NCBI GenBank assembly: GCA_002937585.1
Contig: PTKE01000001.1
Coordinates: forward strand, 5,936-69,935
Source of the DNA: Alphaproteobacteria bacterium MarineAlpha9_Bin6
Lineage (GTDB): Bacteria > Pseudomonadota > Alphaproteobacteria > UBA7887
Direction of reading: 5' to 3'
Length of the DNA stretch: 64,000 nt
How positions within the stretch are numbered: position 1 is the first letter of the stretch; each line of letters opens with the position of its first letter. The notes under the pieces were generated by a model that saw nothing but the letters and a program-made list of their open reading frames with translations, was not told the origin of the DNA and ran no database searches. Positions 6,481 through 36,359 of the stretch are shown here, one piece after another. The position numbers and the translations under genes are program-made.

Positions 6481-6493
6481 TGAGGAAAACTCA

Positions 6494-11276: not shown

Positions 11277-11316
11277 CGGTCAGAACTCCATAAAAACGGA
11301 AGGTCGCATTGAATTC

Positions 11317-12229: not shown

Positions 12230-12698
12230 GACCTCCCCCGCGAGTTCCAAAATGGACCCTATTGATACCCAAGTCACTGGTATGAGCAAACCGGTTTCTA
12301 ATTTGAGCATGCCCCGCCGGATCTCTATAGATCAACTTAATGCAAGCACCTGATCTAACCCTTCTTATCCGTCGTACTAGGTATGGACACCATCAATCGC
12401 ACGTGGTACCTGTCGGGCGCTTGGCACACTAAATGTGCGTGGGGAAAGAGTGGCTAGAAAGCAACCAGCCGGTGGTTCAACGTGTCCCTGAAGCCAGCAC
12501 TAAGATGACTGCAAAGTACGATAACACTTATATAAATTACTGCGGATTTGGTGGCACCTAGTAAAGGACTGTGGTTATATGCGCTTGGGCTGCCTAAGGG
12601 TCTCGGATTGTTCCTTGAATGAGGTAGTTGGCAGATTCGTTGGCGGCCATTTTCAAGCGCTTTTGGCAAACAGTAAACGCCATAATTGGATGACATAA

Positions 12699-15601: not shown

Positions 15602-15674
15602 CTTTTGGCTAATCCCTTAAAGGCAAAATCACGACGTAGGATAAACACAACACAGTTGCTCTTTTGGTCATGCA

Positions 15675-16841
15675 TTACCCTACCCGGTAACGGTCGACGA
15701 ATTCCTGATTGATAGTCACCCCAAGGCCGGGCCTGCGCGGTATATCGATAAATCCATCCTCAACAAGGAAATCCTCCTCGGCAAGTTCATGCAACATTGG
15801 ATTAGCGCCGAGAGAGTATTCGACGATGAAACCAGTCGAAGCAACCGCAGCCAAATGCAAGCCAGAGGCAAAAGTAAGTGCCCCACCCCACAAATGTGGC
15901 GCAAGCCTAATTTGATAGGCACTTGCCAAAGCCTCGATCTTGATACCTTCGGATATTCCACCTGCGATTGACAAATCAGGCTGAAAAATGTCCGCAGCCC
16001 GTCTCTCCGCAAGATCGCGAAATGCAAATCGGGTGAACTCGCTTTCACCCGTAGCAATCGGTATATCAGTCGATGCGCGGACCTCAGCCAGACCCGCTTT
16101 GTCATCAGCCGTGACAGGTTCTTCAAGCCAGCCAATATCACAATCCGCAACCCTGCGGCAAAAGCGTTTAGCCTCGCTTACATCAAAGGTGCCATGAGCG
16201 TCGCACATAATCGCTATATCCTCACCCAACCCAGCGCGTGCAGCGTGAACCCGCTTGATAGAATGAGCGAGCGTGCCATCACCAGATCCAACCCGCATCT
16301 TCACTGCCTTAAAGTTCCCTTGCTCTATAAAGCCATGCAACTCGTCGGCAATGCGATCTACGGGAGCCCAACCACCCGAGGCGTACGCAGGCATCCGTGC
16401 ATGACGTGTCCCGCCGAGTAGTTGCCAAACCGGCTCCCCGAGTGATTTCCCGAGAATGTCCCACAGCGCCATGTCAATGCCACTAATCGCGGAGACAGTG
16501 ATGCCCCGACGGCCTAAAACAGGAAAAACGTGGCCGCGCTCGATCGCATAGTGGGCACGAACGCCGTTATACATTACATCCCATAAACGAGAGATATCCC
16601 TTGCGTCCTCTCCCAAAAGCTGTGGACCAAGTTCCTGCTCAATTAAGGCACACAAAGCGTGGTTGGTGCTAGCACTGCCGACCTGTGCCTTGGCCTCGCC
16701 GTATCCAATCACTCCTGACTCGGTTTCAATCCGAATCAACGCGCTATCAAACGAATCTACCTTGCCGAAATCGCTCCGGTGCTGACGCGTTTCCGGGATA
16801 GGTACATGCAACCAGGTTGCCTTTACGGATTTAATTTTCAT
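15675..16841 (-). CDS. Enolase-superfamily enzyme (mandelate racemase / muconate lactonizing enzyme family)
   Basis: 388 aa; MR/MLE-type N-terminal capping domain plus a TIM barrel with metal-ligand acidic residues (KMRVG, MCDAHG, WLEEP); convergent with korB. Confidence 0.75.
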   Translation of the reverse strand: MKIKSVKATWLHVPIPETRQHRSDFGKVDSFDSALIRIETESGVIGYGEAKAQVGSASTNHALCALIEQELGPQLLGEDARDISRLWDVMYNGVRAHYAIERGHVFPVLGRRGITVSAISGIDMALWDILGKSLGEPVWQLLGGTRHARMPAYASGGWAPVDRIADELHGFIEQGNFKAVKMRVGSGDGTLAHSIKRVHAARAGLGEDIAIMCDAHGTFDVSEAKRFCRRVADCDIGWLEEPVTADDKAGLAEVRASTDIPIATGESEFTRFAFRDLAERRAADIFQPDLSIAGGISEGIKIEALASAYQIRLAPHLWGGALTFASGLHLAAVASTGFIVEYSLGANPMLHELAEEDFLVEDGFIDIPRRPGLGVTINQEFVDRYRVG

Positions 16842-16993
16842 TGTTTTTACGCCACTTGGCAGAATTTGAACGATTATTGTTAAATCATATATTAAATTGT
16901 AATCACTTCATCACCGAGTTGACCTGCGAACAATAGTTTTAGAAGCGCAGCACGCCTCTGCACGCCAGCGCTTTGGTTGGTATAACCCTTGTC

Positions 16994-17012
16994 GAATTTC
17001 TATAGAAAATTC
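16994..17012. promoter_or_regulatory. 19-bp near-perfect palindrome GAATTTCTATAGAAAATTC upstream of the enolase-superfamily gene
   Basis: CTATAG core with GAATTT/AAAATTC arms, about 150 bp upstream of the minus-strand MR/MLE start at 16841. Confidence 0.25.
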
Positions 17013-17055
17013 ACTCGATTCTGTGAAAACTTGTCAGTAACTTGCAACTTCCGTT

Positions 17056-17916
17056 TTAACAAACAGTGCGGAAACGCTCGACGCATACGTCCAGCACTTC
17101 GCTGGGGTCGCGCTTCCACCAATTATTCACTGAGAACACTTCGACTTCGCAATACCCAGAATAACCGGCATTCTCAACAGCTTGTCGTATAGCCTTCAAA
17201 TCCGCGACACCATCACCCATCATGCCTCGATCTAACAGCACATCGTTAGTGTCAGCGAGCCAATCACACAAATGGTACCCAGCAATCCGATCTGCGCCAG
17301 CTCGTTTCAACTCGGAAGCAAGAGAAATATCCCACCACACATGGTACACATCCACTGCAATTGTAACGAACGGATGTGCAATATCCTCACACATGTTCAC
17401 CGCGTCACGAACCGTCACGAGGCAGGAACGACTCGCCCCGTAGACGGGATGTAACGGCTCAACCGCGAGTCTCACTCCGGATGATTCTGCATATTGCGCC
17501 ATGTCTGCAACAATTGAGGCAACCTCCTTAAGGCTCTCCGTAATACTATGCGAACCTTCAATCACGCCACCGGCACAAACTGTGAGACACCTAGCACCAA
17601 GATCCGAGGCTATCTCGATTGCCAACTTAAAGTCATCGATCACTTCTTGCCTACCGCCAGGTGTGAGTGGACCGACTAAAAAAGGAGCTCGGCACAAGCC
17701 CGATACTTCAAGTCCTGCCGACCGTGTGCGTTCTCCTATTTCGAATCCCCGTTTCCCGATTTCACGCCGCCACCAAGCAATCGCCCCAAACCCTCGTTCT
17801 GCGCAAGCATCGATGATCCGTTCCGGCGACCAGCCCGCACCGCACCCCTCCATAAGGTGACCAAGTGTTGCCGTATTAAGCGCCAAATCCGAGTGATCTT
17901 CCGAGAAATTCCGCAT
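17056..17916 (-). CDS. Sugar phosphate isomerase/epimerase (xylose-isomerase-like TIM barrel)
   Basis: 286 aa; AP-endonuclease-2 / xylose-isomerase-like TIM-barrel composition; upstream of the MR/MLE gene on the same strand. Confidence 0.65.
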   Translation of the reverse strand: MRNFSEDHSDLALNTATLGHLMEGCGAGWSPERIIDACAERGFGAIAWWRREIGKRGFEIGERTRSAGLEVSGLCRAPFLVGPLTPGGRQEVIDDFKLAIEIASDLGARCLTVCAGGVIEGSHSITESLKEVASIVADMAQYAESSGVRLAVEPLHPVYGASRSCLVTVRDAVNMCEDIAHPFVTIAVDVYHVWWDISLASELKRAGADRIAGYHLCDWLADTNDVLLDRGMMGDGVADLKAIRQAVENAGYSGYCEVEVFSVNNWWKRDPSEVLDVCVERFRTVC

Positions 17917-18086
17917 GATTTATAGCCCTACCAATTGATCGCACAAGCGACTTTTTCTCAATACAACAGAGACAAAACAAGCGCCGAAGTAAGACGACAG
18001 ATTATTGAGTTTTCCGACACACTTCTACACTAGAGAGTATGACCACCGCATACCGTTTTGGTTCAGAGTGATATAGGTTTTTAAAT

Positions 18087-19763
18087 ATGGAAAACGAATT
18101 ACCAGACTTCATTGTGGTCTGATCAGGTGCCGCAGGAATGACTGCAGCGTTAACCGGCTTAATGCTTGGTCTAAAAGTTAAAATCTTAGAAAAATCAGAG
18201 GTCATTGGTGGCACTACATCGCTGTCAGCCGGATCGGTGTGGATTCCCAATTCTATGCATTCAACGCCTGGCGCCGATAGCGATAAAAAAACGAGGACCT
18301 ATCTTCGCAAGACCGTTGGAAACAGACTCAAACCGGAACTTTGTGATGCCTTTCTAAAACATGGTCCCGCCATGATCCGATTTTTATCGGACACTGATGT
18401 GAAATTTCGTGCTTACCCAAAGCACCCTGACTATTTTGCAGATGCCGAGGGAGCAACCCTATCCGGGCGTGCTTTGGAGCCCCTTCCCTTCAATGGCGCC
18501 AGCCTGGGCGCAGATTTTCATCGACTGAGAGATCCCCTGCCAGAATTTACTATCCTGGGCGGCAGGATGGTTGATCGGGATGATATTGCAAAGTTGCTCA
18601 ATGCTGCCCAGAACCTCTCATCCTTTGCTCAATCTTCACAATTGCTTGCGCGATATGTTTTGGATCGATTGAGGTTCCACCGAGGCACACGATTAGTGAT
18701 GGGAAATGCCCTCGTCGGCCGGCTTTATTCCTCCCTTCGAAAACAAGGTGTGCGTGTGGATACCGGCACGAATGTAACGGGGTTAACCAAAGAAAATAAC
18801 AAAGTTATTGGCGTAGAAATTAAAAATAATAGGCAAACAGGACTGGCACTGGCGAAACATGGAGTGATTCTTGCGTCTGGCGGGTTTTCCCGTCATCCGG
18901 AACTACGCCGATCGCTTTTGCCGGAACCACTCGCCCAATTTTCTCCTTTGCCGGAAACAATAACGGGAGATGGCGTCTCAATTGGCATAGACGCAGGTGG
19001 ATTCATTGGGAACGGACACGCAGAGAATTGTTTTTGGACCCCTGTCTCGGTTCGAAAACGAAAAGACGGATCCATGACCGTCTTTCCGCATTTTGTCTTG
19101 GACCGGGGAAAACCAGGCTTAATCGCGGTTGATCGAAATGGCAGGAGATTCGTTAGCGAGGCAACGGACTACCATTCGTTCGGAAAAGCAATGTATGCAA
19201 ACAAAACTAGAGGAACAATTCCCTGTTATTTCGTTTGTGATTACAACTTTATCCAGAAATATGGCCTCGGCATGGTTCGCCCTCGCGCGTCAAATCTCTC
19301 GAATCTTGTATCGGAAGGGTATGTTGTAAAAGGAGAGACAATCACCGCTCTCGCCAAGGAACTGAGGATTGATAGTCATGGCCTGTTGGCGGAGGTGAAA
19401 ACTCAAAATGAATATGCACAAAGCGGGGTCGATACAGAATTTGGCAACGGTCGCAACTCGTACGAACGTAACCTTGGAGATCACAGGCATAGGCCTAATC
19501 CCTGCCCTGGCCCCATCAAAAAACCACCATTTTTTGCGATCAAAGTCTATCCCGGGGATTTAGGGGCGAGTATTGGCCTTGTGACCGATAAAAATGCCCA
19601 AGTCATTAAGTCAGGCAATGGACCAATATCTGGACTTTACGCCTGCGGAAGCGATATGGACTCCATGATGGCCGGTGTCTACCCAGGGCCAGGAATTACA
19701 ATTGGACCAGCAATGACGTTCGGTTATATCGCCGCAAAACATATCGCAGGCAACATATCATGA
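18087..19763 (+). pseudogene. FAD-dependent oxidoreductase (KstD / fumarate-reductase-flavoprotein-like) with in-frame TGA inside the GxGxxG FAD-binding motif
   Basis: Upstream of the ORF-track start (18138) the same frame reads MENELPDFIVV-TGA-SGAAGMTAALTG; TGA (18120-18122) occupies the first Gly of the dinucleotide-binding motif; downstream GGTTSLSAGSVW is typical of this family. Confidence 0.5.
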
Positions 19764-19904
19764 CGTTCTTGGGATACCCAGAATGGCAACCCAATAAGCG
19801 GCAGATCGCTACGCTTACCCGTAACCTCGAAGGTTCCATCACTCATTTATGATACAATCTACAATACGTTGTTGTGATCTAAATAAAGATAGGGATCAGG
19901 TTAG

Positions 19905-20606
19905 TTGACGGCAGACAATTACCCTCCAGACAATGCGGCCGGTCAACCAGACAATGCTGCTCCGACTTATCGCTCGACTCAAAAACGAGCGCCTTCTATT
20001 CCCCCGGTCGTGGTCCCCGCAACTCTGGGTGAACTCTCCAAACCATTGTTCGGGCACAACAATCTCACTGAGAATGACTCTGATCTCACACGTCAACATA
20101 ATGCCAAACCACAAGGTGAGCGCATTATTGTTGCTGGAAGGTTACTTGACGAAGGATTGCGCCCAGCGTCGGGGCATCTGATAGAGATATGGCAAACCAA
20201 TGCCGCCGGTCGCTACATTCATGCGGCTGACCAACATGACGCGCCACTCGATCCCAATTTTACCGGCGCCGGCCGAACTGTAACGGATGCAGACGGATGG
20301 TACCGATTTACGACCGTAAAACCTGGTGCATATCCGTGGGGAAATCACACGAATGCGTGGCGACCTGCCCACATTCATTTTTCACTATTTGGCCCCAGTT
20401 TCCTATCTCGACTGGTCACACAAATGTACTTCCCCGCGGATCCACTTTTGGCGCTCGATCCAATTTTGCAATCAGTAGCTGACGCAACAGAACGTGCCCG
20501 CTTGATCTCAATATTGGACTTTGATCTCACCCAACCCGGATGGGCACTTGGATACCGTTTCGACATCACTCTTCGTGGAAACAACCAGACCCCCACTGAG
20601 AGCTAA
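19905..20606 (+). CDS. pcaH: Protocatechuate 3,4-dioxygenase beta subunit
   Basis: 233 aa; TTG start with an AGGGA RBS; strong match to PcaH core (GRLLDEGLRPASGHLIEIWQTNAAGRYIH, AHIHFS). Confidence 0.85.
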   Translation: MTADNYPPDNAAGQPDNAAPTYRSTQKRAPSIPPVVVPATLGELSKPLFGHNNLTENDSDLTRQHNAKPQGERIIVAGRLLDEGLRPASGHLIEIWQTNAAGRYIHAADQHDAPLDPNFTGAGRTVTDADGWYRFTTVKPGAYPWGNHTNAWRPAHIHFSLFGPSFLSRLVTQMYFPADPLLALDPILQSVADATERARLISILDFDLTQPGWALGYRFDITLRGNNQTPTES

Positions 20607-20607
20607 A

Positions 20608-21189
20608 TTGAAAAACGCCACACCATCACAGACTATAGGACCATTCTTCGCCTATAGCCTGACATCAACGAAGTACGGTCGCAGGCTGCTTGCCTCGAAC
20701 CGCATTGACAGTGTATCGGGCACTCAAATCCGTGTTAAAGGGCAAGTGTTTGATGGAGACGGTGAACCGGTGCCGGACGCTATGTTAGAAATCTGGCAGG
20801 CAGACCCTGAAGGACGCCTGGCGGGGGCAAACGATGGCGCAAATATAAAATTCACAGGATTTGCTCGAGCCGCTACTGACCAAGACGGGACCTTCATCTT
20901 TGAAACCGTCAAACCCGGGCGTTTTCATACCTCAAACGACATTCTGCAAGCACCCCACATCAGTGTAATCGTTTTTGCACGCGGCATCCTTACACATCTG
21001 CATACCCGTATCTATTTTGCGGATGAGACAAGTAACGATAACGATCCAATCCTAGCCGCGATCGAAGACCCCAATCGTCGTGTCACACTGATTGCTGTCC
21101 CAGATTCGGATGGAAATGGCTACACAAACTACCGCTTTAATATACGCCTTCAGGGTGAAGAGGAAACTGTTTTTTTTCAGTGGTCATAA
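20608..21189 (+). CDS. pcaG: Protocatechuate 3,4-dioxygenase alpha subunit
   Basis: Probable TTG start at 20608 (ORF track begins at 20521, overlapping pcaH); N-terminal LKNATPSQTIGPF matches the PcaG ELKETPSQTGGPY motif; APHISVIVFARGI...HTRIYF core. Confidence 0.85.
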   Translation: MKNATPSQTIGPFFAYSLTSTKYGRRLLASNRIDSVSGTQIRVKGQVFDGDGEPVPDAMLEIWQADPEGRLAGANDGANIKFTGFARAATDQDGTFIFETVKPGRFHTSNDILQAPHISVIVFARGILTHLHTRIYFADETSNDNDPILAAIEDPNRRVTLIAVPDSDGNGYTNYRFNIRLQGEEETVFFQWS

Positions 21190-21288
21190 AGTAATACAGA
21201 AATTAATTAATCTTCTAGATGAGATGTGTGCCATGAACGATTGGTTATTGAGCAATACTCAAAACCCAAGACTGAGCCGGCGATCCTT

Positions 21289-22611
21289 GTGCTAATTGAA
21301 CCACAGTTCCGCACCAAATTCGGCGATACAATTTGGGATATAACAGGACGCATAGCTCGCATGGCCGCCTTCGAAGGAGCTCTAGCTTCAGCGCAAGCAG
21401 CGACCGGACTAATTCCCGAGACATCCGCTAAATCAATAGTCCGTGTATGCAAAACTGCCCTGCCCGAAGCTAACGACTTATACGAAAAAGCTAAAGTTGC
21501 GGGCAACCCAGCCATCCCTTTTCTCAACTATTTAACAACAGCCGTTGCCTCTGAAGATTCCAATGCTGCTGCTCATGTCCACTTCGGCGCCACTAGCCAG
21601 GATTTAATCGATAGCGCCAACATGATGGCATTAGCGGAGATTGCTGATGCTCTTGATTCCATGTTGCTGGAGGTGGCATCTGATTTGCGCAAACTGGCCA
21701 TCGCTCACACCGAAACCCCCATGGTAGCTCGTACTTTGCTACAGCAGGCAACGCCGATCACGTTCGGACTCAAAGCCGCATTGTGGGGAATAGCCATCAC
21801 GCAAACACGGAAACAATTGAAAGCCGCAAGGTGCAACGATATGGCAGTCCAACTAGGCGGGTCAAACGGCACCCTGTCCGCGATGGCACCACATGGTCCC
21901 GCTGTGCGTGCCGACACTGCGGCACGTCTTGGTCTCACCGATCCGGATCATTGTTGGCATGTATTGCGTGGTCGTATCCTGACAATCTCGACTACGTTCG
22001 CAGCTTTAGTGGGAGCCGCAGCCAAAATTTCAGGTGACTGCATATTAATGATGCAGACTGAAGTCGGGGAATTGCAGGAGGCCTCACCAGGCGGATCATC
22101 AGCTATGCCCCAAAAGAAAAATCCAGTGGATGCGTTGGTGCCCATTGCGGCGCTACCCCTTGCAGCAACGCATCTATCAGCAATGACTGCTTCGCAAATG
22201 CATGCGCATGAGCGCGCAGCAGGACCGTGGCACAGCGAGTGGATCACCTTGCCAGTACTAACCAGTCTCACTCTTGCATCAATCGAGAGTCTCATGGGAA
22301 TGCTTTCTGGCCTAAAAATTAACACCTCTCAAATGAAAGCCAATCTTGCCCGCACCGGTGGAACACTTGCCGCCGAAGAACTTGCTGCAACTCTCGTTGA
22401 AAGCGTGGGACGCAACGAAGCACATAACCTAATCAGAACCCTAGTGGAGCAAAGTGACTATGAAAACTTTGCGGACACAATTCGTTCCAATACAAAGTTA
22501 TCAGGGCTGATTTCCGAAAGCAGGCTTAGCGAAATTTTAAGCTACAAAGGGCCTTTGGCCGCAGCTGCGCAGGAAGCTCAAAAATTGGTAAACACGATCA
22601 GTAACTCGTGA
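21289..22611 (+). CDS. pcaB: 3-carboxy-cis,cis-muconate cycloisomerase (fumarate-lyase superfamily)
   Basis: Fumarate-lyase signature GSSAMPQKKNP; N-terminus aligns with PcaB (FRTKFGDTIWDITGRIARMAAFEGALASAQA); probable GTG start at 21289 (ORF track 21226). Confidence 0.8.
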   Translation: MLIEPQFRTKFGDTIWDITGRIARMAAFEGALASAQAATGLIPETSAKSIVRVCKTALPEANDLYEKAKVAGNPAIPFLNYLTTAVASEDSNAAAHVHFGATSQDLIDSANMMALAEIADALDSMLLEVASDLRKLAIAHTETPMVARTLLQQATPITFGLKAALWGIAITQTRKQLKAARCNDMAVQLGGSNGTLSAMAPHGPAVRADTAARLGLTDPDHCWHVLRGRILTISTTFAALVGAAAKISGDCILMMQTEVGELQEASPGGSSAMPQKKNPVDALVPIAALPLAATHLSAMTASQMHAHERAAGPWHSEWITLPVLTSLTLASIESLMGMLSGLKINTSQMKANLARTGGTLAAEELAATLVESVGRNEAHNLIRTLVEQSDYENFADTIRSNTKLSGLISESRLSEILSYKGPLAAAAQEAQKLVNTISNS

Positions 22612-22650: not shown

Positions 22651-23454
22651 ATGCTTTCAAAACTGAACGGAAAAACACGTCTTTTTCTGACAGTGGGTTA
22701 CCCGATTGGTCAGGTCAAATCTCCGGCCGACATAACCGACGCATTTGAAGCACGTGGCATAAATGCGGTTCAGGTTCCGGTAGAAGTCTTGCCCGAAGGA
22801 ATTGACACCTTCTTTAAGGGCCTCCATTCAGCCACTAATCTTGATGGGATGGTAATAACGGTTCCATATAAATTTGTCGGCTCGAACATATGCAAGACTC
22901 TTACGCCTCGAGCTGCTCGCCTGGGTGCCGCCAATGTAATTCGCCGAAATTCTGACCGATCATGGCATGGAGACATGACAGACGGACTTGGTTTTTGTAA
23001 TGCGATTCGTGAAGCAGGTAGCGTTATAGACGGGCAACGGGCTTTATTAATCGGAGCAGGCGGAGCAGGTTCCGCGATCGGCCTCGCGTTACTTGATGAG
23101 GGGGTCGCGGAACTTAACATTTATGATATTGATCCAACACGGTCCGATAAGCTCTCGAGCCTCTTGGCAAGCGATTATGACGGTGTATCGGTCGTAAGCA
23201 ATTCCGACCCCATCGGTTTCGATATCATTGCACATGCAACCCCTACCGGCATGAAATCGAAAGATCCCCTGCCGCTCGATGTCGGTCAATTGGCAAACGA
23301 CATGCATGTGGGCGATGTCGTAACTGAACCGGAAATATCACCGCTGATTAAAGCAGCCAAAGAACGCGGTTGCCGAACCAATACAGGCATTGAAATGTTC
23401 GACGGTCACCGCGAAATAATTGTCGATTTTCTACTCCACCAAGAAAAGCGGTAG
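22651..23454 (+). CDS. Shikimate/quinate 5-dehydrogenase family protein (AroE/YdiB-like)
   Basis: 267 aa; VTVPYK substrate motif and GAGGAGSAIG NAD(P)-binding motif; sits immediately downstream of pcaB. Confidence 0.75.
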   Translation: MLSKLNGKTRLFLTVGYPIGQVKSPADITDAFEARGINAVQVPVEVLPEGIDTFFKGLHSATNLDGMVITVPYKFVGSNICKTLTPRAARLGAANVIRRNSDRSWHGDMTDGLGFCNAIREAGSVIDGQRALLIGAGGAGSAIGLALLDEGVAELNIYDIDPTRSDKLSSLLASDYDGVSVVSNSDPIGFDIIAHATPTGMKSKDPLPLDVGQLANDMHVGDVVTEPEISPLIKAAKERGCRTNTGIEMFDGHREIIVDFLLHQEKR

Positions 23455-23484
23455 ATCTGACAATTAAAGAATGGGAGACACCCT

Positions 23485-24174
23485 ATGTTAACCAACGCCG
23501 ATGCCTTCTTAGCCATATGGCATGATTTAGAATCGACCGGAAAATCAGAGTGGGAACGCTGGCATACATATGAGCATATGCCGGAAAGGGTTGGAATTCC
23601 TGGTTTCCTCGCGGGAAGGCGTTATATGAACGACGATGATCCGGAACAGTGTTGTTTCACGATGTACGAAGGGTCTGACCTCTCGGTTTTTGAATCCACG
23701 GCATACTTGGAACGCCTCAACAATCCGACGCCCTGGACTCGAGAAAATGCACCCACGTTCCGGAATTTTACTCGGGGCGCGTGCCATCGCGTCACACGTG
23801 CCGGATCCCAGCACGGCTACGGAGGTGTTATACTAACAGTACGTATTCTCCGTGGTCCGAAGTTTGCCGAAAATACAAAACAACTTTCCACACTGAACAA
23901 ATTAACTACCTCAATATGTGACTTAGAAGGAGTGACAGCAGCAACAATTGGGCTCTGCGACGCCGAGATCACAACTACCGAAACAACCGAGCGGAGCCTG
24001 AGAAAAAAGACTACCGAATCTACGCTCGATGGGGTCCTGATTGTTGAAGGATACAATGTGAGCACAATCAAAACACAGGGACCGAACATCGAAAAATTGG
24101 TCGCAATGTCCGACGTAGATCTGACACCGCTACCCCATCAAATATATGTACTTTCATACATGCTCAGGGGTTAA
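23485..24174 (+). CDS. Hypothetical protein embedded in the pca operon; possible internal two-domain duplication, no family recognised
   Basis: 229-aa ORF with a GGGAGA RBS 7 nt upstream, 30 bp after the AroE-like gene; the N-terminal half (AIWHDLES...WERWHTYEHMPERVGIPGFLAGRRY) and the C-terminal half look like related roughly 100-aa modules. Confidence 0.5.
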   Translation: MLTNADAFLAIWHDLESTGKSEWERWHTYEHMPERVGIPGFLAGRRYMNDDDPEQCCFTMYEGSDLSVFESTAYLERLNNPTPWTRENAPTFRNFTRGACHRVTRAGSQHGYGGVILTVRILRGPKFAENTKQLSTLNKLTTSICDLEGVTAATIGLCDAEITTTETTERSLRKKTTESTLDGVLIVEGYNVSTIKTQGPNIEKLVAMSDVDLTPLPHQIYVLSYMLRG

Positions 24175-24472: not shown

Positions 24473-25624
24473 TCAGTTTTCTATTTCCGGCACATCTACC
24501 CAACGCCGTTCTAATGAACTTTGATACGCAAGTTCTGCCAATTGCACCCCTTTGGCGCCCTCGCGAAGGTCCCAACGAAACGGAGTGTCTTCTGTGACAT
24601 GCCGGAGAAATAACTCCCATTGTGCCTTAAACGCGTTTTCGTAATCGGCATTATCAAGCACCTCCTGCCAATCAGCCAAGTAATCCATAGTTTGCGGTAG
24701 ATCAGGATTCCACACGGGCGTTGGTGTATTGATTCGGGATTGAGTCCAACACCGACGGAGTCCTGCGACCGCACTTCCGTCAGTACCATCAACCTGGATC
24801 GTCAATAAATCATCACGCCGCACTCTAACTGCCCAGGAACTATTGAAGTGAGCAATCCCGCCATTGCCCAACTCGAATGTCGCGTAGGCCGCGTCTTCTG
24901 CATCCGATTCATAACGCTCCCCCGCCTCGTCCCACCGCTCGTCTATATGCACTACGCCGCGACAGCTGACGGCTTTTACACCGCCAAATAAATTGTCGAG
25001 CAAGTACCGCCAGTGAGTCAACATATCAAGGATGATGCCACCGCCCTGACCCCGGCGATAGTTCCACGAAGGCCGTTGTGCTGGTTCACCAGCTCCATCA
25101 AACACCCAATACCCGAACTCACCACGCACCGATAGCAATCGGCCGAAGAAGCCAGAATCAAATAAATATTTTAGCTTTAACAAACCAGGCAACCATAGTT
25201 TGTCTTGTACTACGCCATGCTTAATATCAGCGGCTTTAGCACCACGATAAAGATTAACTGCATCAACAAAGTTTGTAGCTGTCGGTTTCTCACAATATAT
25301 GTGTTTCCCAGCAGCGATAGCTCGACGCACGAAATTTACGCGCAGGTCTGTACTAACGGCATCGAAAAAAATCGGCAAGTTGTCATCCCTGAGCATTTCC
25401 TCAACATCCGTACTCCATCGTGCGATCCCGTGCTCTTTTGCAAGCGAACGCAGTTTTCCCGAATCGCGACCAACTAGTACTGGTTCCGGGATTACACAAG
25501 TGCCATTACCGAGGATCAAACCACCCTCATCACGGATCGCAAGAATAGACCTCAAAAGGTGCTGTTTGGCACCCATCCGGCCTGTAACCCCGTTCATTAT
25601 TATGCCAATCTGTTTCTCTGCCAT
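24473..25624 (-). CDS. Gfo/Idh/MocA family NAD(P)-dependent oxidoreductase
   Basis: 383 aa; N-terminal Rossmann IGIIMNGVTGRMG; family-typical EKP motif (IYCEKPTA). Confidence 0.8.
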   Translation of the reverse strand: MAEKQIGIIMNGVTGRMGAKQHLLRSILAIRDEGGLILGNGTCVIPEPVLVGRDSGKLRSLAKEHGIARWSTDVEEMLRDDNLPIFFDAVSTDLRVNFVRRAIAAGKHIYCEKPTATNFVDAVNLYRGAKAADIKHGVVQDKLWLPGLLKLKYLFDSGFFGRLLSVRGEFGYWVFDGAGEPAQRPSWNYRRGQGGGIILDMLTHWRYLLDNLFGGVKAVSCRGVVHIDERWDEAGERYESDAEDAAYATFELGNGGIAHFNSSWAVRVRRDDLLTIQVDGTDGSAVAGLRRCWTQSRINTPTPVWNPDLPQTMDYLADWQEVLDNADYENAFKAQWELFLRHVTEDTPFRWDLREGAKGVQLAELAYQSSLERRWVDVPEIEN

Positions 25625-25782: not shown

Positions 25783-26958
25783 ATGTTGCGTCTGATTAGA
25801 ACAACCGGACCTATCGTCACCATTTTAGCTGCACTTAGCATAGCGCAAGCAGCCGAGGTAAAAATCGGAACGCTGTATCCCATCACTGGAGGTGGCGCAA
25901 TCTATGGATCTCCGGCGATGATCGGACACCGAATGGCAATCGATGAATTGAACTCTCAAGGAGGAATTCTCGGCATGCAGGTGGTGAGTGTGGAACGTGA
26001 CACGAAATTAAATCCCGCCACCGCGGCTGCGGCAGCAAAAGAAATGATCACGAAAGACGGCGTAAACGTGATCATTGGCGGTTTAAGTTCGGCGGTCGGT
26101 CTCGCCATTTCGGAGGTCGCCAAACAGGAAAAGGTCATCTATATCGCAACCATTCCCAAGACCATCCAAATGACAACTAACAGAAGACACGATTATGTTT
26201 TTCGTACAGCGTCACACACTGATTTCGAAGGGGACGCAATAGCGCAAATTGCAAAGCAACTGGGTGCCCAAAAGATTTGCGATATCCAGCTTGATTATGC
26301 GTATGGCCATGATTTAGCTGATGGAATCGAGAGGGGCTTGAAGCGTCATCTGCCGGACGCAAAGAAGGTTTTAGACCTTCGACCAAAATTGAGAGCGACT
26401 GACTACAACGTTTTTATTACCCAAATCATGGGAGCTGGATGTGATGTAGTGACAAGCGGCCTGTGGGGACCCCACTTTGTGGATTTCGCAAAACAGGCGT
26501 CTCCTTTCGGCCTGTTCCAACAGATCAAGTACATTACTGGTGGGGAGATAGGCAGCCAGGAGATTGCGGGTGCGATGGGTGAAGACTACCCAGACAACGT
26601 GTGGGCCAATTCCTACGAGTTGTGGTATCACCACTCGACCCAAGAACACAAAAATTTTCAGGAAGCACTAGCCAAGCGCCTGGACACCATTGAAACCCCC
26701 ATGTGGCCGGTATTAGCATTGATCGGCGTGCGTATGTATGGCGCTGCAGCAGAAAAAGCTGGATCCCTGGATGCGGCCAGCATATCCGATGCTCTTAAAG
26801 GCATGTCGATCGATACACCAGTTGGACCGCGCACCATCGATCCGGAAACGCACCAGGCGGATACTGGCCAGTTTTGGGGACCCATGGTGAAAAAGGAAGG
26901 TGTCCCCTACCGCGTGATGGATCCCATTACCTATATTCCCGCAAAAATCATCGAATAG
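25783..26958 (+). CDS. ABC transporter substrate-binding protein (branched-chain amino acid / LivK family)
   Basis: 391 aa with a signal peptide (ILAALSIAQAAEV); type-I periplasmic binding fold; first gene of the permease/ATPase operon. Confidence 0.8.
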   Translation: MLRLIRTTGPIVTILAALSIAQAAEVKIGTLYPITGGGAIYGSPAMIGHRMAIDELNSQGGILGMQVVSVERDTKLNPATAAAAAKEMITKDGVNVIIGGLSSAVGLAISEVAKQEKVIYIATIPKTIQMTTNRRHDYVFRTASHTDFEGDAIAQIAKQLGAQKICDIQLDYAYGHDLADGIERGLKRHLPDAKKVLDLRPKLRATDYNVFITQIMGAGCDVVTSGLWGPHFVDFAKQASPFGLFQQIKYITGGEIGSQEIAGAMGEDYPDNVWANSYELWYHHSTQEHKNFQEALAKRLDTIETPMWPVLALIGVRMYGAAAEKAGSLDAASISDALKGMSIDTPVGPRTIDPETHQADTGQFWGPMVKKEGVPYRVMDPITYIPAKIIE

Positions 26959-27045
26959 TCCGTTTATTGTCGAACTACGGAGAAAATCTCAGTTAGCCAG
27001 CGTCGGTGACAGGGTGCTTGTGCCGAGCTGAGATCAATCAATGTC

Positions 27046-27990
27046 ATGGAATCGCTGCTGGAATTTATTCGCATCGATATGGGAAGCCCAGGGTTAGCAA
27101 CTCTTGTGAGCAATCCCAAATTTGCTTTTATCCAGCTCCTGAACTCCGTGTCCATGGGCATGAATTTTTTTATTATTGCGGCGGGATTATCACTCATCTT
27201 CGGGGTGCTGAAAGTTATTAACTTTGCACACGGCGCCTTTTACATGTTTGGTGCCTATATTGCTTATTCAGTTACCGAGACGATGGGACTTAGTTTTTTT
27301 TGGGGCGTAATTGGCTCCGCCGTTGGTCTGGTTTTGCTCTCAGTGGTCATTGAACGCAGCCTATTCCGGTTCGTTTATGACAAAGAACACTTGATGCAAC
27401 TTTTACTGACATTTGCCTTGGTACTGATCCTAGGAGATGTAGCAAAAATAATTTGGGGTACCGACCAGTACAGTGTGTCATATCCAGCGAGTCTGTCTGG
27501 AGCAACAAACCTAGGAATAGCGTACTACCCGTCCTATCGCCTGCTACTTTGCATTCTGGGACCAGTCATTTTCCTAGCCTTGTGGCTCTTCATCGAACGC
27601 ACTCGCTGGGGCCGGATCACAAAAGCGGCCACTCAGAATCGTGAAATGCTGGCGGCTTTGGGTATCAACGTCCCAATCATCTACACTGGTGTGTTTGTAG
27701 CGGGCTCAGCACTGGCTGGTATTGGGGGTGCTCTAGCCTCACCATTTAACAGCCCAACTCCCGGCATGGACGCCATCATCATCGTGGAGTGTTTCGTGAT
27801 CGTCATTATCGGCGGCTTAGGCTCATTGTGGGGAACCTTCGTTGGGGCGTTGATTTATGGCTTCGTGTTCAACTTTGGCTCGGTGATCGTACCCAACGGT
27901 CAAGACATATTCGCCTTTCTGATTCTGCTGGTAGTATTGCTTATCCGGCCATGGGGTCTTTTTGGGCGCCCGGAGACGGAAGGGCAGTAG
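27046..27990 (+). CDS. livH: Branched-chain amino acid ABC transporter permease (LivH-type)
   Basis: 314 aa polytopic membrane protein; FAHGAFYMFGAY motif typical of LivH. Confidence 0.8.
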   Translation: MESLLEFIRIDMGSPGLATLVSNPKFAFIQLLNSVSMGMNFFIIAAGLSLIFGVLKVINFAHGAFYMFGAYIAYSVTETMGLSFFWGVIGSAVGLVLLSVVIERSLFRFVYDKEHLMQLLLTFALVLILGDVAKIIWGTDQYSVSYPASLSGATNLGIAYYPSYRLLLCILGPVIFLALWLFIERTRWGRITKAATQNREMLAALGINVPIIYTGVFVAGSALAGIGGALASPFNSPTPGMDAIIIVECFVIVIIGGLGSLWGTFVGALIYGFVFNFGSVIVPNGQDIFAFLILLVVLLIRPWGLFGRPETEGQ

Positions 27991-27995
27991 GACTC

Positions 27996-28937
27996 ATGAC
28001 CGATGCAATGACTCGATCGGCTATGGCCGGCTGTCTGATATCCTTAGCCCTCCTGATATCCGTACCGCTGTTTCAATCGGCCTACTTAATTGATGTTGTT
28101 ACAGAGATTCTGATTTACGCGCTGTTCGCTCTCAGCCTAAACGTTATCATCGGCTATTCAGGCAATGTTTCCTTTGGTCACGCCGCGTATTTTGCGATTG
28201 GCGGTTATACCAACGCTATTTTGCTAACAAGCCACGGATGGGCTTTGGTGCCATCTTTCGTAACCAGCATTCTCGTCACAATGATAGCTGCAGGCTTTGT
28301 CGCTTATTTTTGTACGCGGCTCACCAACATTTACTTTGCAATGTTAACGCTCGCTTTTTCAATGTTGGTCTGGGCCATTGCATTTAAATGGCGCTCAGTA
28401 ACGGGAGGAGACGATGGATTCGTCGGCATCCGTGTCCCAGAGATTATCAACAATCGAGCTCACTTCTACTACTTCACCTTAATCATGGTAACGGCAGCGA
28501 CCACCCTACTATGGTTTATATGCCACTCGGCGTTTGGGCGGACCCTGGTGGCAGTGCGTGAAAACGCTACTCGGGCTGGATTTGTTGGCGTCAACACCCG
28601 TCTCATGCGCTGGTGGGCCTTCGTTGTCGCTGGTACCTTTGCCGGCATAGCTGGGGCCATCTTCGGTATGTTCCACCGCGGTATGTACGTGGAATCAGCA
28701 TTCTGGACTCAATCGGCAACGGTTCTGATCATGACCCTATTGGGTGGCATGTTTTCTTTTTTCGGTCCGGCAATCGGCGCCGCCACACTTTTTATCCTGG
28801 AACGAATAACCAACGAATACACCGAGTATTGGCCAACGGTTTTAGGCTGCATTCTTCTGGTAATATTGCTATTCCTGCCAGATGGCCTAGCCGGGCTGGC
28901 TCGCAAAGTGCGTAGTTATGTTGCGGGAAGCAATTAG
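27996..28937 (+). CDS. livM: Branched-chain amino acid ABC transporter permease (LivM-type)
   Basis: The ORF track starts at 27789 and overlaps livH by 200 nt; ATG at 27996 (MTDAMTRS), 5 nt after the livH stop, gives a 313-aa polytopic permease. Confidence 0.75.
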   Translation: MTDAMTRSAMAGCLISLALLISVPLFQSAYLIDVVTEILIYALFALSLNVIIGYSGNVSFGHAAYFAIGGYTNAILLTSHGWALVPSFVTSILVTMIAAGFVAYFCTRLTNIYFAMLTLAFSMLVWAIAFKWRSVTGGDDGFVGIRVPEIINNRAHFYYFTLIMVTAATTLLWFICHSAFGRTLVAVRENATRAGFVGVNTRLMRWWAFVVAGTFAGIAGAIFGMFHRGMYVESAFWTQSATVLIMTLLGGMFSFFGPAIGAATLFILERITNEYTEYWPTVLGCILLVILLFLPDGLAGLARKVRSYVAGSN

Positions 28938-28939
28938 AA

Positions 28940-29692
28940 ATGTTGGAAACGCACGACCTGCACAAACACTTTGACGGGTTTAAAGCAATCACTGCGATCA
29001 ATTTTAAACTCATTGAGGGGGAACGACATGCCATCATTGGTCCAAATGGTGCCGGCAAAACGACGTTCTTCAATCTCATCACCGGACACCTGCAACCCAG
29101 TGCAGGCGAAGTTCGCTATAAAGGAGACCTGATTAGTGGTCTACCCCCATACAGAATCGTAAAGCTTGGCCTCGCCCGCTCTTTCCAACGCATCAACATT
29201 TATCCGCGAATGACCGTGTTCCAGAATGTCCAAGTGGCGTTAATTGCTCAGAACAATCAACATCTCCATTTTTTCACCCGAGCTCACAATTTATACAAGG
29301 AAGAAACAGAGGACCTTCTTGAACTCGTTGATCTTTTGGGAGAGATACAGGACATCGCTGGTGAACTGGCGTACGGAAAACAAAAACAGCTGGAATTGGC
29401 CATTTCACTTGCCGCCAACCCCCGAGTATTGCTGCTTGATGAACCCACCGCCGGCATGTCGCCCAGTGAGACAGCGGAATCGATCAGGCTAATCAACGAC
29501 ATCACGCAAAGCCGCTCCTTGACCCTTTTGTTTACTGAACATGACATGAGCGTCGTTTTTAGTATTGCCGATCGAATCAGCGTACTTCATCACGGGGAAA
29601 TTTTAGCCTCCGGCGCGCCCGATGAGGTACGTAAAGATGTAGAAGTTAGAAGGGTCTATCTAGGTGAAGAGGTGGGTCATGCCTCAGCTTGA
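28940..29692 (+). CDS. livG: ABC transporter ATP-binding protein (LivG-type)
   Basis: Walker A GPNGAGKTT, signature LAYGKQ, Walker B LLLDEPTAG. Confidence 0.85.
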   Translation: MLETHDLHKHFDGFKAITAINFKLIEGERHAIIGPNGAGKTTFFNLITGHLQPSAGEVRYKGDLISGLPPYRIVKLGLARSFQRINIYPRMTVFQNVQVALIAQNNQHLHFFTRAHNLYKEETEDLLELVDLLGEIQDIAGELAYGKQKQLELAISLAANPRVLLLDEPTAGMSPSETAESIRLINDITQSRSLTLLFTEHDMSVVFSIADRISVLHHGEILASGAPDEVRKDVEVRRVYLGEEVGHASA

Positions 29693-30386
29693 GGTTAAAG
29701 GAATTCACGCTTCGTATGGCCTGAGCCATGTTTTATTTGGCGTTTCATTTAACGTTGAGGCAGGACAGTGCGTTTCCTTGATCGGCAGAAATGGCGTAGG
29801 CAAGACAACCACAATGCGATCCATCATCGGCCTGACACCCGCCCATATAGGAAATATCGTATTCGAAGGCACGGACATCACCCACCTTCCCACACATAAA
29901 ATCGCAAAACTTGGCATCGCGTTTGTGCCGGAAGAACGGCATATCTTTCCAGAGCTTTCCGTATGGGAGAATCTTGATATAGCCCGACGTCGACCAAGGA
30001 ACGATGGGCCGGCTTGGAGCGAAGAAGAGGTCTACGAGTTATTTCCGGACCTGAAGGAAATACGAAACCGACTGGGGGGTGTTTTGTCGGGCGGCCAACA
30101 ACAAATGCTAACTGTAGCACGAAGTCTGATGGGTAACCCAAGGTTGTTGATTTTAGATGAACCCTCCGAGGGCCTTGCCCCAAAATTGGTTGAAACACTT
30201 CGTGATCGAGTAGCACTTCTCAAAGATGGAGGGATGTCGATCGTATTAGCGGAGCAAAATCTTAAGTTTGTTCTATCGCTGAGCGATCACTGCCACATTA
30301 TGGAAAAAGGTGAGATCAAGTTTTCAGGAACTCCTGAAGACCTTCGTGAAAATGCTCAAGTAAAAGAGAAATACTTAACTCTATGA
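29679..30386 (+). CDS. livF: ABC transporter ATP-binding protein (LivF-type)
   Basis: Walker A GRNGVGKTT, signature LSGGQQQM, Walker B ILDEPSEG; start at MPQLEVKG overlaps livG by 14 nt. Confidence 0.85.
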   Translation: MPQLEVKGIHASYGLSHVLFGVSFNVEAGQCVSLIGRNGVGKTTTMRSIIGLTPAHIGNIVFEGTDITHLPTHKIAKLGIAFVPEERHIFPELSVWENLDIARRRPRNDGPAWSEEEVYELFPDLKEIRNRLGGVLSGGQQQMLTVARSLMGNPRLLILDEPSEGLAPKLVETLRDRVALLKDGGMSIVLAEQNLKFVLSLSDHCHIMEKGEIKFSGTPEDLRENAQVKEKYLTL

Positions 30387-35941: not shown

Positions 35942-35969
35942 GTGCTGAAGGAAGTAAAACAGGTGACCG

Positions 35970-36359
35970 ATGTCTGACAAAAGCGAAAACAAAGAAGAAA
36001 TTAGCAAAGCAATAATCCGCAAGGCAGTTGAAGTGATGTGGGAGGATTTGCCAGGACACTTCGACGGTGCCTTGTCAAAAATGCTGATAACCCCCTCGAA
36101 TGCTCCGACTAAACATTTTGATTTTCGTCTCTCTACCTACCAACCCAAAGGCTTTGTCGCCAAACACCGTCACGAGGTCGAAGAACAGATTTACTATATG
36201 CTTGAAGGAGAAGGTTTGATGGAGCTAGATGGCGTCCGTAAAGTGGTACGCTCTGGGGCAACCATTTTCATTCCTTCCGGGGTCGAGCACGCTCTTTACA
36301 ATACCGGAACCAACGACCTTACTTTCCTGGTAATCACCAGCCCCCCTCTAACTAACTGA
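35970..36359 (+). CDS. Cupin-domain protein
   Basis: 129 aa; cupin motifs (HRHEVEEQIYYMLEGEG ... FIPSGVEHALYN); overlaps the convergent TcuA-like gene by 12 nt. Confidence 0.65.
   Translation: MSDKSENKEEISKAIIRKAVEVMWEDLPGHFDGALSKMLITPSNAPTKHFDFRLSTYQPKGFVAKHRHEVEEQIYYMLEGEGLMELDGVRKVVRSGATIFIPSGVEHALYNTGTNDLTFLVITSPPLTN

Follow-up and report, generated by a model that had tools for sequence, protein, structure and literature searches.

An aroE-like gene and a gene for a 229-residue protein without a recognised family stand directly downstream of the genes for protocatechuate 3,4-dioxygenase and a PcaB-like lyase in the window (the whole stretch of DNA that was analysed, 64 kb), which raises the question of what this protein, the target, contributes to such an operon. 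The earlier note on this DNA had speculated that it may replace the missing lactone-processing enzymes. Our best explanation, at a probability of about 0.35, is that it is a cofactor-independent enolising enzyme and helps to convert the ketone formed by the neighbouring dehydrogenase into an aromatic compound, protocatechuate.

The target gene and its neighbours

The genes around the target, and its putative ribosome-binding site, are as follows.

15675-16841, minus strand: enolase-superfamily (MR_MLE) protein, from Pfam; divergent pair (15675..17916) with the AP_endonuc_2 gene
17056-17916, minus strand: AP_endonuc_2 TIM-barrel protein, from Pfam; other member of the pair
18087..19763, plus strand: KstD-like FAD-dependent ring-ketone desaturase (FAD_binding_2); first gene of the unit
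19905..21189, plus strand: pcaH and pcaG, protocatechuate 3,4-dioxygenase beta and alpha subunits; equivalog cut-offs passed
21226..22611, plus strand: pcaB-like lyase, 3-carboxy-cis,cis-muconate cycloisomerase-like (Lyase_1); start codon uncertain
22651..23454, plus strand: aroE-like dehydrogenase, shikimate dehydrogenase family, RifI-like (Shikimate_dh_N); upstream partner of the target
23473..23478, plus strand: GGGAGA, Shine-Dalgarno-like, 6 nt 5′ of the ATG, as read from the sequence
23485..24174, plus strand: target gene, 229 aa, ATG start; large uncharacterised family, predicted two-domain single-chain alpha+beta barrel
24473-25624, minus strand: GFO/IDH/MocA oxidoreductase, from Pfam and gene tables; convergent with the target
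25783-30386, plus strand: Liv-type ABC importer, from Pfam and gene tables

The pcaH and pcaG products score 331.8 bits with TIGR02422 (cut-off 296.4) and 223.3 bits with TIGR02423 (cut-off 126.25), and the PcaB models give 357 and 302 bits on the pcaB-like lyase, under their cut-offs of 595 and 355.75. Every NCBIfam match of the aroE-like protein is below cut-off; its closest solved structure is 4k28, a ‘shikimate dehydrogenase family protein’ (E=3e-49), and an Asp after the second Rossmann-fold strand suggests a preference for NAD. The KstD-like protein is closest to 7p18, a 3-oxosteroid 1-dehydrogenase (E=2e-92), and its gene is broken by an in-frame TGA at 18120-18122 that replaces GGA, the codon for the first Gly of GSGAAG. 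The closest structures for the AP_endonuc_2 and MR_MLE pair are 3ju2 (SMc04130) and 3ozm. The arrangement of the GFO/IDH/MocA gene and the Liv importer beside the target is kept in four related loci (L007, L010, L011 and L092).

The target reading frame is a real, conserved gene under constraint. Its dN/dS against the L007 orthologue, with which it is 72% identical, is 0.08, a word-indexed search returned 1,908 homologues, 3,862 cluster representatives (at 50% identity) in public data matched the family at E<=1e-3, and contigs from many samples carry the identical protein. The ribosome-binding site and the 30-bp gap to the preceding gene, whose TAG ends at 23454, are present as the earlier note had described them, and the peptide strings that it cited are found in the 229-aa translation. 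Expression with the pca genes, which it had also claimed, is plausible from strand, spacing and the synteny in L007, L010 and L011, while promoter and terminator scans gave no signal above chance.

A large family with an invariant polar constellation

No Pfam or NCBIfam model matches the target, in agreement with the earlier view that it belongs to no nameable family, and neither sequence nor profile searches of PDB sequences turned up a meaningful match. The sole sequence family giving any signal for its relatives is DUF4286 (PF14114), which matches 8 of 46 relatives with a best E of 0.01, short of the gathering score, and does not match the target itself (E>0.1). Shorter plasmid-borne relatives, named DUF4286 by NCBI, align to its N-terminal half, and a remote relationship of that half to DUF4286 is likely as judged from sequence. 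DUF4286 consists of one domain of ~100 aa with no assigned function, whereas the target family adds a second half that is unrelated in sequence. Seeming fusion proteins in the distant matches (P0151, P0259 and others) proved to be frameshifted or low-complexity artefacts and so offer no Rosetta-stone clue.

Conservation was measured in 46 and in 244 sequences, the latter spanning 27-96% identity. Among the 244, H31, R35, Y61 and R97 are 100% conserved, W12, W26, E34, Y74 and P81 at least 98% (W26 and E34 at 98%), E30 93% and H27 89%. Several of these residues fall in one motif:

23560..23589, plus strand: W26-H-T-Y-E-H-M-P-E-R35 on helix 1; family consensus W-H-x-x-E-H-x-x-E-R

From its conservation, this motif is a candidate catalytic or metal-binding face. 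The strict conservation of the polar constellation formed by H31, R35, Y61, R97 and others speaks for an enzyme, and the target, a member of a large and so far unnamed family, is probably a new one. We found no characterisation of it in the literature.

A single-chain alpha+beta barrel

The AlphaFold model of the target (pLDDT 94.5) contains two beta-alpha-beta-beta-alpha-beta halves, and the protein is modelled as a single-chain ‘dimeric alpha+beta barrel’ built from two ferredoxin-like halves, that is, as a tandem member of this superfamily.

23485..23814, plus strand: N-terminal ferredoxin-like half, residues ~1-110; bears most invariant residues, faintly DUF4286-like
23815..24171, plus strand: C-terminal ferredoxin-like half, residues ~111-229; less conserved

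The N-terminal half (E7-15, H17-36, E41-48, E57-63, H66-91, E92-107, with E for strand and H for helix) holds the invariant W12, W26, H27, E30, H31, E34, R35, R45, R46, Y61, Y74, R77, W84 and R97, and the C-terminal half (E115-123, H131-145, E150-158, E183-189, H192-207, E219-228) holds the loop motif T167-x-E169-x3-R173 together with E188 and Y221. Profile-profile comparison of the halves detected no sequence similarity (hhalign probability 0.09%, E=0.59), indicating that the second half is a structural duplication and not a sequence repeat. The two related modules of about 100 aa postulated in the earlier note thus exist in the predicted structure and not in the sequence, where the internal alignment that it had called for came out negative. 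Its guess of a tandem small alpha+beta barrel was right, and fold comparison places the target in the superfamily of muconolactone isomerase.

The nearest folds are tandem ABM-like putative monooxygenases (3f44 and 3mcs), an anthrone-oxidase-like protein (5f9p), a marine metagenome protein (2pgc), sulfur oxygenase reductase and bacterial chalcone isomerase. Identity of 3f44, 3mcs, 5f9p and 2pgc to the target is only 6-11%, their conserved residues differ from those of the target, and most of these proteins are uncharacterised. The ABM family (PF03992) has no match at E<=1 in the target or in any of the 46 relatives. Sulfur oxygenase reductase (2cb2, 6qpa) is a longer protein of ~308 aa with extra elements and an unrelated biology, and its profile gave an hhalign probability of 0.04% against the target. 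Its Fe ligands, as checked in the sequence, are H86 and H90, both in the helix that follows strand 3, and E114 in strand 4; by sequence and secondary-structure position neither these nor Cys31 has a counterpart in the target, which has no His in the equivalent segment, residues 66-107.

Gene context across the family

Context was counted in 80 species-level loci of the target family, with pcaB counted within +/-8 kb. An aroE-like (RifI-class) gene directly adjoins the target gene in 14 of the 80, on the same strand and 21-144 bp away, in both gene orders and in Alphaproteobacteria, Actinomycetota and Chloroflexota. An isolated two-gene unit of the aroE-like and target genes, without pca genes, is kept while its flanks vary. 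An oxidoreductase gene of some kind directly adjoins the target in 52/80 loci, and the family of the adjacent dehydrogenase varies between aroE-like, extended SDR, classical SDR, Zn-ADH and KstD-like. Near the target lie AP_endonuc_2 TIM barrels in 45/80 loci, AroQ (type II dehydroquinase, family confirmed) in 31, KstD-like flavoproteins in 23 and MR_MLE genes in 8; at least one of four partner types (aroE-like, AroQ, AP_endonuc_2, KstD-like) occurs in 56. Across phyla, then, target genes are tightly coupled to those for ring dehydrogenases of the NAD(P) and flavin types, most of all the RifI-class homologue, and also to the genes for dehydroquinase and AP_endonuc_2 proteins that belong to quinate/shikimate-type (hydroaromatic) catabolism.

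Ring-cleavage genes accompany the target less often: pcaB is near it in only 3/80 loci and pcaHG in 4/80. Protocatechuate or hydroxyquinol ring-cleavage modules stand beside it in 10 loci and on Sinorhizobium meliloti pRM41A, and an operon of NTF2, maleylacetate reductase, intradiol dioxygenase and target genes was seen in seven loci and on pRM41A. The latter carries its target homologue together with bona fide pcaC and pcaD, and there an MR_MLE gene overlaps the stop codon of the homologue. A Chelatococcus locus (L059) combines the target with an enzyme that we read as a fused QsuB-type dehydroshikimate dehydratase.

Two clades depart from this pattern and count against our best explanation. 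In the Hyphomicrobiaceae the target lies in a housekeeping neighbourhood (glmM, folP, ftsH) and has no catabolic partner, and in another clade its gene overlaps a TRAP solute-binding protein gene with no coupling to a dehydrogenase.

Proposed function

As an enolising enzyme, the target would be soluble, with a putative pocket under helix 1 of the N-terminal half that may be lined by invariant His, Glu, Tyr and Trp together with five or six Arg. The aroE-like enzyme of the operon would oxidise a hydroxy acid resembling shikimate and so form a ring ketone, on which the target would then perform acid/base (enolate) chemistry without an organic cofactor, in a dehydration and/or keto-enol tautomerisation that completes aromatisation. 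The Arg residues may hold the carboxylate while His31, Glu and Tyr shuttle protons, and the product, protocatechuate, would be cleaved by the PcaHG and PcaB-like lyase that the operon also encodes. Among the closest structural relatives, the tandem ABM-like, anthrone-oxidase-like and bacterial chalcone isomerase proteins handle enol, enolate or phenolate substrates and use no organic cofactor. Counted against this explanation are that, where the nearest structural relatives have been assigned an activity, they are for the most part oxygenases and not lyases, and that, to our knowledge, the canonical route from quinate to protocatechuate has no need of a target-like protein. A plain stand-in for dehydroquinase or dehydroshikimate dehydratase was considered and rejected, as the target coexists with AroQ, with AP_endonuc_2 and, in Chelatococcus, with the QsuB-type enzyme; the 29 loci that have both AroQ and AP_endonuc_2, together with the Chelatococcus locus, mean that it does not simply substitute for either enzyme everywhere.

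A more far-reaching proposal, which we hold only tentatively, is that the family constitutes a new class of cofactor-independent enzyme for an unrecognised step from hydroaromatic or alicyclic acids to ring-cleavage substrates, with a RifI-class dehydrogenase as its obligate partner. Such a step would be, for example, that of a non-homologous dehydroshikimate dehydratase or tautomerase, or a decarboxylative aromatisation to hydroxyquinol. Marine and soil bacteria would carry the class widely, and the lig1 cluster of Pseudomonas putida would represent the same module in a version with a NIPSNAP protein.

An oxygenase function is rather unlikely. The target would then belong to the ABM/anthrone-oxidase type, as an oxygenase or oxidase that works without a cofactor (or with a metal), O2 oxidising an enediol or phenolic intermediate, for instance protocatechuate or a dehydroshikimate-type enolate to a hydroxyquinone, hydroxyquinol or gallate-type product. 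The best folds, which include the anthrone-oxidase-like protein, the tandem ‘putative monooxygenases’, the PenE monooxygenase and sulfur oxygenase reductase, speak for this, as do the confinement of the family to lineages of aerobic appearance, a helix-1 motif of H-x3-H with a Glu that could bind metal, and the operons of NTF2, maleylacetate reductase, intradiol dioxygenase and target, which have no obvious enzyme for a hydroxyquinol-forming step. However, no ABM Pfam match was obtained, the iron ligands of sulfur oxygenase reductase lack counterparts, with no His in target residues 66-91, and the constant partner is a dehydrogenase and not a quinone-recycling reductase. Moreover, PcaHG in the window take protocatechuate itself, so that an additional oxygenation is not needed.

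Less probable again is a role as ketol isomerase or epimerase of an LsrG-like or mutarotase-like kind. By shifting a carbonyl, or inverting a centre adjacent to the ring ketone, the target would make the product of a non-canonical dehydrogenase fit for a dehydroquinase or dehydratase, without itself carrying out the aromatising step. The coexistence of AroQ and AP_endonuc_2 with the target implies an extra, non-redundant step, and the variety of adjacent dehydrogenases is compatible with this role, but the isolated aroE-like and target unit has no adjoining dehydratase.

We consider it improbable that the target lacks catalytic activity and instead binds ligands, senses or has an accessory role, escorting reactive diphenols or modulating the dehydrogenase or transporter encoded next to it. 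Such a role would accommodate the Hyphomicrobiaceae clade and the overlap with the TRAP gene, and it has a precedent of sorts in P. putida, where a NIPSNAP ‘energy sensor’ takes the corresponding position in a similar cluster, an accessory role having been proposed for NIPSNAP proteins. A constellation of His, Glu, Tyr and Arg that stays invariant over 27-96% identity is nevertheless typical of a catalytic site, and characterised members of the fold class are mostly enzymes.

The lactone-processing role of the earlier note, in which the target would act as a 4-carboxymuconolactone decarboxylase, isomerase or hydrolase on the lactone of the PcaB-like enzyme in place of PcaC and PcaD, is very unlikely: pcaC (CMD) and pcaD (alpha/beta hydrolase) are indeed not found in the 64-kb window or in the syntenic L007, L010 and L011, the target lies in one putative transcription unit with pcaHG and the pcaB-like gene, and muconolactone isomerase belongs to the same fold superfamily, but pcaB and pcaHG are rare companions across the family, the conserved partner is aroE-like even in pairs far from any pca gene, genuine pcaC and pcaD stand beside the homologue on pRM41A, and hydroxyquinol-type operons form no lactone. 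Nor did Pfam and NCBIfam find a CMD (PF02627) or alpha/beta-hydrolase domain in the target, whose fold differs from theirs.

Should the target prove to be a hydroaromatic-funnelling enzyme, thousands of ‘hypothetical proteins’ would acquire a function, and the RifI-class shikimate-dehydrogenase homologues a testable partner and substrate range. It would also constitute a new way into the beta-ketoadipate pathway, through its protocatechuate and hydroxyquinol branches, with a bearing on how quinate/shikimate-type and alicyclic acids from plants and phytoplankton are turned over in soils and in the sea, and possibly provide a small cofactor-free catalyst for engineered protocatechuate production.

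Comparison with known systems

The 3-dehydroshikimate dehydratases AsbF, QuiC1 and QsuB convert a keto hydroaromatic acid to protocatechuate just before ring cleavage, the same kind of step as is hypothesised for the target, and the gene context is compatible with this analogy. These enzymes are AP_endonuc_2 TIM-barrel metal enzymes, whereas the fold of the target is completely different and contains neither the TIM barrel nor its metal site.

Muconolactone isomerase and 5-chloromuconolactone dehalogenase (1mli, 3znj) are small alpha+beta ferredoxin-like barrels of aromatic catabolism that carry out cofactor-free proton transfer, and they share with the target both this type of barrel and the aromatic-catabolism setting. 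Muconolactone isomerase gave an hhalign probability of at most 0.3% and no blastp match against the target, which shows neither sequence nor closest-fold similarity to that family (PF02426) and, with a pcaB-like gene nearby in only 3/80 loci, no association with the lactone-forming cycloisomerase genes (catB or pcaB).

A parallel in gene content is the P. putida lig1/lig2 cluster, which encodes, besides a RifI homologue and a NIPSNAP protein, two FAD oxidoreductases, a LigC homologue and a sugar-phosphate isomerase described as a putative dehydroshikimate dehydratase, and which responds to quinate and protocatechuate (bioRxiv 10.1101/2025.08.13.670189). According to the same preprint, the only literature that we found on PP_2605 to PP_2608, the function of RifI is still unassigned and the biological role of RifI-class homologues has been open for more than 15 years. 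In lig1 (the PP_2604-PP_2609 region), a RifI-class dehydrogenase, FAD oxidoreductases, a small barrel, an AP_endonuc_2 protein and a GFO/LigC-type dehydrogenase stand under an IclR regulator, and the NIPSNAP protein, itself a small alpha+beta barrel, occupies the place equivalent to that of the target. It is a single-domain protein of another sequence family, and the two do not simply replace one another, given that a NIPSNAP gene and a gene for a target homologue occur together on S. meliloti pRM41A.

Operon structure and its neighbors

The open reading frame that encodes the 229-aa protein (hereafter, the target) closes a run of same-strand genes. The reading frame itself, the GGGAGA ribosome-binding site and the 30-bp gap to the aroE-like gene, whose TAG ends at 23454, are all present in the sequence as the earlier note described them.

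18087-19763, +, KstD-like flavoprotein gene, first in the run (true start 18087)
19905-20606, +, pcaH
ends 21189, +, pcaG
21226-22611, +, pcaB-like lyase gene
22651-23454, +, aroE-like dehydrogenase gene, directly upstream of the target
23473-23478, +, GGGAGA upstream of the target ATG, read from the sequence
23485..24174, +, target ORF, 229 aa, ATG start

Upstream of the run, and divergent from it, lie one AP_endonuc_2 gene and one gene of the enolase superfamily, while the target is followed by a convergent GFO/IDH/MocA gene and then a Liv-type ABC importer. Promoter and terminator scans of the operon gave no signal above chance, which leaves spacing and synteny as the basis of the operon call. 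For pcaG, the mechanical ORF (20521-21189) begins at a TTG within pcaH (20521); since gene calls on identical contigs choose later starts, giving 213 or 193 aa, the true start is probably further downstream, possibly right after the pcaH stop. Downstream of the ABC transporter, at 36348-37853 (-) and 34151-36359 (+), the window also encodes another FAD_binding_2 flavoprotein, together with a TPP enzyme and a small cupin; since the same trio follows the target locus in L092, the catabolic island may extend past the operon.

The closest PDB entry to the aroE-like protein is 4k28, a 'shikimate dehydrogenase family protein' (E=3e-49), which we take to be the P. putida RifI-class enzyme, and every NCBIfam model for shikimate or quinate dehydrogenase scored far below cut-off against it. 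By our reading, this protein appears to keep the catalytic Lys/Asp pair, plus an Asp suggesting a preference for NAD. The KstD-like flavoprotein is closest to 3-oxosteroid 1-dehydrogenases (7p18, E=2e-92), enzymes that desaturate adjacent to a ring ketone, and the AP_endonuc_2 protein to the uncharacterised SMc04130. Both pcaH and pcaG pass NCBIfam equivalog cut-offs; the pcaB-like gene fails both PcaB cut-offs.

The KstD-like gene of the window contains an in-frame TGA (18120-18122) in place of the GGA of intact copies, which encodes the initial Gly of GSGAAG, the FAD-binding motif. This TGA is common to two contigs from independent samples (L002, L005). In three others (L001, L003, L006) the Gly codon is retained, but a 1-bp insertion near window position 18539 shifts the frame, and L006 and L001 have further indels. 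The gene looks to be undergoing loss, assembly errors being the less likely explanation. Among the window and six contigs, L004 alone has an intact copy, while the target is 100% identical in all seven and the rest of the operon 99-100%. The flavoprotein thus seems to be either dispensable or in decay in this population, with the aroE-like gene, the target and the pca part kept. This is consistent with the aroE-like gene and the target as the functional core.

A large family with a predicted tandem-barrel fold

The target is clearly a real gene. The identical protein is present on contigs of many marine samples, and dN/dS against a 72%-identical orthologue (on contig L007) is 0.08. An indexed search returned 1,908 homologues, and 50%-identity cluster representatives numbered 3,862 at E<=1e-3 and 630 at <=1e-30. 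The earlier statement that it matches no nameable family was borne out, as no Pfam or NCBIfam model matches the target. No solved structure was found by sequence with either the target or a 46-member profile, and the sole sequence-family signal was a faint one to DUF4286 (Pfam) in 8 of 46 relatives (E>=0.01). Some shorter plasmid-borne relatives, which align to the N-terminal half, are named 'DUF4286 family protein' by NCBI. Our literature search found no paper on the family, which is very large, uncharacterised and new, inside a known fold superfamily.

An AlphaFold model built with the family alignment (pLDDT 94.5, pTM 0.91) predicts two beta-alpha-beta-beta-alpha-beta halves, at residues of about 7-107 and 115-228, in a tandem alpha+beta barrel. 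The predicted fold is like that of the tandem 'putative monooxygenases' 3mcs and 3f44, and of bacterial chalcone isomerase, chlorite dismutase, coproheme decarboxylase and DyP, with identities within 6-12%. By hhalign the two halves have no sequence similarity (probability 0.09%), so the proposal of two related modules is correct for the structure but not in the sense of a sequence repeat.

Across 244 full-length relatives (27-96% identity to the target), H31, R35, G40, Y61 and R97 are 100% conserved; W12, W26, E34, F41, R45, R46, Y74, L78, P81, W84 and G107 are conserved in at least 95%, and H27, E30, R77, T167, E169, R173, E188 and Y221 in at least 89%. The majority lie in the first half, where helix 17-36 bears W26-H27-x-x-E30-H31-x-x-E34-R35; from the second half comes a T-x-E-x3-R motif in a loop. 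The numerous Arg, alongside His, Glu, Tyr and Trp, would suit a candidate enzyme pocket that takes an aromatic or an alicyclic carboxylate.

Family-wide gene neighborhood

A one-genome-per-species scan gave 516 relatives, and the best 80 of the 516 loci were analyzed at +/-8 kb by tblastn with window and pRM41A (Sinorhizobium meliloti Rm41) proteins and by de novo clustering of neighboring ORFs.

Genes near target-family members in the best 80 of 516 loci
AP_endonuc_2 TIM-barrel proteins: 45/80
Type II 3-dehydroquinate dehydratase AroQ (passes NCBIfam cut-offs): 31/80
KstD-like FAD oxidoreductase: 23/80
aroE-like dehydrogenase: 17/80
Intradiol dioxygenases: 10/80 (pcaHG 4, hydroxyquinol-type 7)
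Enolase-superfamily protein: 8/80
pcaB-like lyase: 3/80

The family is strongly gene-coupled to ring dehydrogenases (RifI-class ones above all) and to genes of hydroaromatic catabolism. At least one hydroaromatic-type partner occurs in 56 of the 80 loci, and in 52 the target has an oxidoreductase gene no more than 300 bp away. The top same-strand pairs are the target followed by an extended SDR (25/80) and an aroE-like gene beside the target (15/80). The aroE-like gene is immediately adjacent (21-144 bp, same strand) in 14/80, preceding the target in the window's clade and following it in Actinomycetota, Chloroflexota, Bradyrhizobium and Sinomonas, and in BAL199/Thalassobaculum-type genomes the two form an isolated unit that stays intact amid changing flanks.

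Ring-cleavage modules are often close by. The order on pRM41A is AKR, NIPSNAP, aroQ, maleylacetate reductase, target, enolase-like (overlapping the target stop codon), NTF2, intradiol dioxygenase, AP_endonuc_2 and FAD oxidoreductase, adjoining pcaG, pcaH, pcaC and pcaD. The operon of NTF2-family, maleylacetate reductase, intradiol (hydroxyquinol-type) dioxygenase and target genes, at 7096-20669 of the pRM41A locus L090, recurs in L047, L057, L059, L062, L064 and L084; it stands beside quinate-type genes and pcaGHCD, and these loci have no obvious candidate for a hydroxyquinol-forming enzyme. In Sagittula, FAD oxidoreductase, target and Zn-ADH genes have overlapping or 2-bp junctions.

A Rhizobiales cluster (L041, L042, L048, L055, L067-L069, L072, L073 and L076, about 5000-16000 in each) has GntR, AP_endonuc_2 and SDR genes on the opposite strand and continues with target, extended SDR, SBP_bac_3 binding protein, AroQ, GFO/IDH/MocA, AKR or AP_endonuc_2, two permeases and an ATPase, frequently with an M24-family hydrolase and a KstD-like gene close by. 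The cluster resembles a pathway acting on some hydroaromatic or cyclitol-like compound that an amino-acid-type transporter brings in.

Two clades are exceptions. The Hyphomicrobiaceae proteins (L015-L020 and L030, target at about 8001-8690; 247 aa, with a 10-residue insertion after the RRY motif) sit among housekeeping genes, with glmM and a ParA-like gene upstream and folP, ftsH and tilS downstream, and have no catabolic partners. In a marine clade (L089, L093; target at 10001-10681, 50-60% identical to that of the window), an orphan gene for a TRAP solute-binding protein (DctP) either overlaps the target start with its end or stops 4 bp short of it, and the two are translationally coupled. 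Upstream of this pair are genes for a DctPQM transporter, an acyl-CoA ligase and an acyl-CoA dehydrogenase.

Proposed function

The target is probably a hydroaromatic-funnelling enzyme and not a lactone-processing one. In the reading we prefer, at a probability of roughly 35%, it would act on the ring ketone produced by the neighboring dehydrogenase through cofactor-free enolate chemistry, by dehydration and/or tautomerisation, and would thereby finish aromatisation; the product in the window operon would be protocatechuate, for PcaHG. A role as a simple stand-in for dehydroquinase or dehydroshikimate dehydratase was rejected, as AroQ and AP_endonuc_2 are both alongside the target in 29 of the 80 loci and, by our reading, the Chelatococcus target (L059) coexists with a fused QsuB-type enzyme.

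A cofactor-independent or metal-dependent oxygenase is unlikely, though the foremost of the alternatives. The Fe ligands of sulfur oxygenase reductase, H86 and H90 on the helix that follows strand 3 and E114 on strand 4 (PDB-verified sequence), have no counterpart in the target, whose residues 66-107 contain no His, and the two profiles are unrelated. A ketol isomerase or epimerase is somewhat less probable again. We consider a non-catalytic binding or sensor protein improbable; the alignment shows an invariant site that appears enzyme-like. The lactone-processing role proposed in the earlier note is very improbable: its premise holds within the 64-kb window, where no pcaC (CMD) or pcaD (alpha/beta-hydrolase enol-lactonase) gene was found across 1-64000, but the role is contradicted by the scarcity of pcaB-like genes in the family-wide context, by the target occurring with genuine pcaC and pcaD on pRM41A, and by its lack of similarity to muconolactone isomerase. 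All the window has instead is a dienelactone-hydrolase family protein (3105-3809), which adjoins an amidase gene and beta-oxidation genes.

The finding as a whole is unsurprising in kind, yet it offers a lead that is concrete and open to test, both on RifI-class dehydrogenases, orphans for a long time, and on thousands of 'hypothetical' proteins. LigC is a member of the GFO/IDH/MocA family. The P. putida lig1/lig2 cluster, described in a 2025 preprint, includes IclR regulators, a LigC homologue and a sugar-phosphate isomerase termed a putative dehydroshikimate dehydratase, and the role of RifI is still unassigned according to its authors (bioRxiv 10.1101/2025.08.13.670189). The surroundings of the target hold the same set of families, differing from lig1/lig2 in the small alpha+beta-barrel protein that occupies the target's place.
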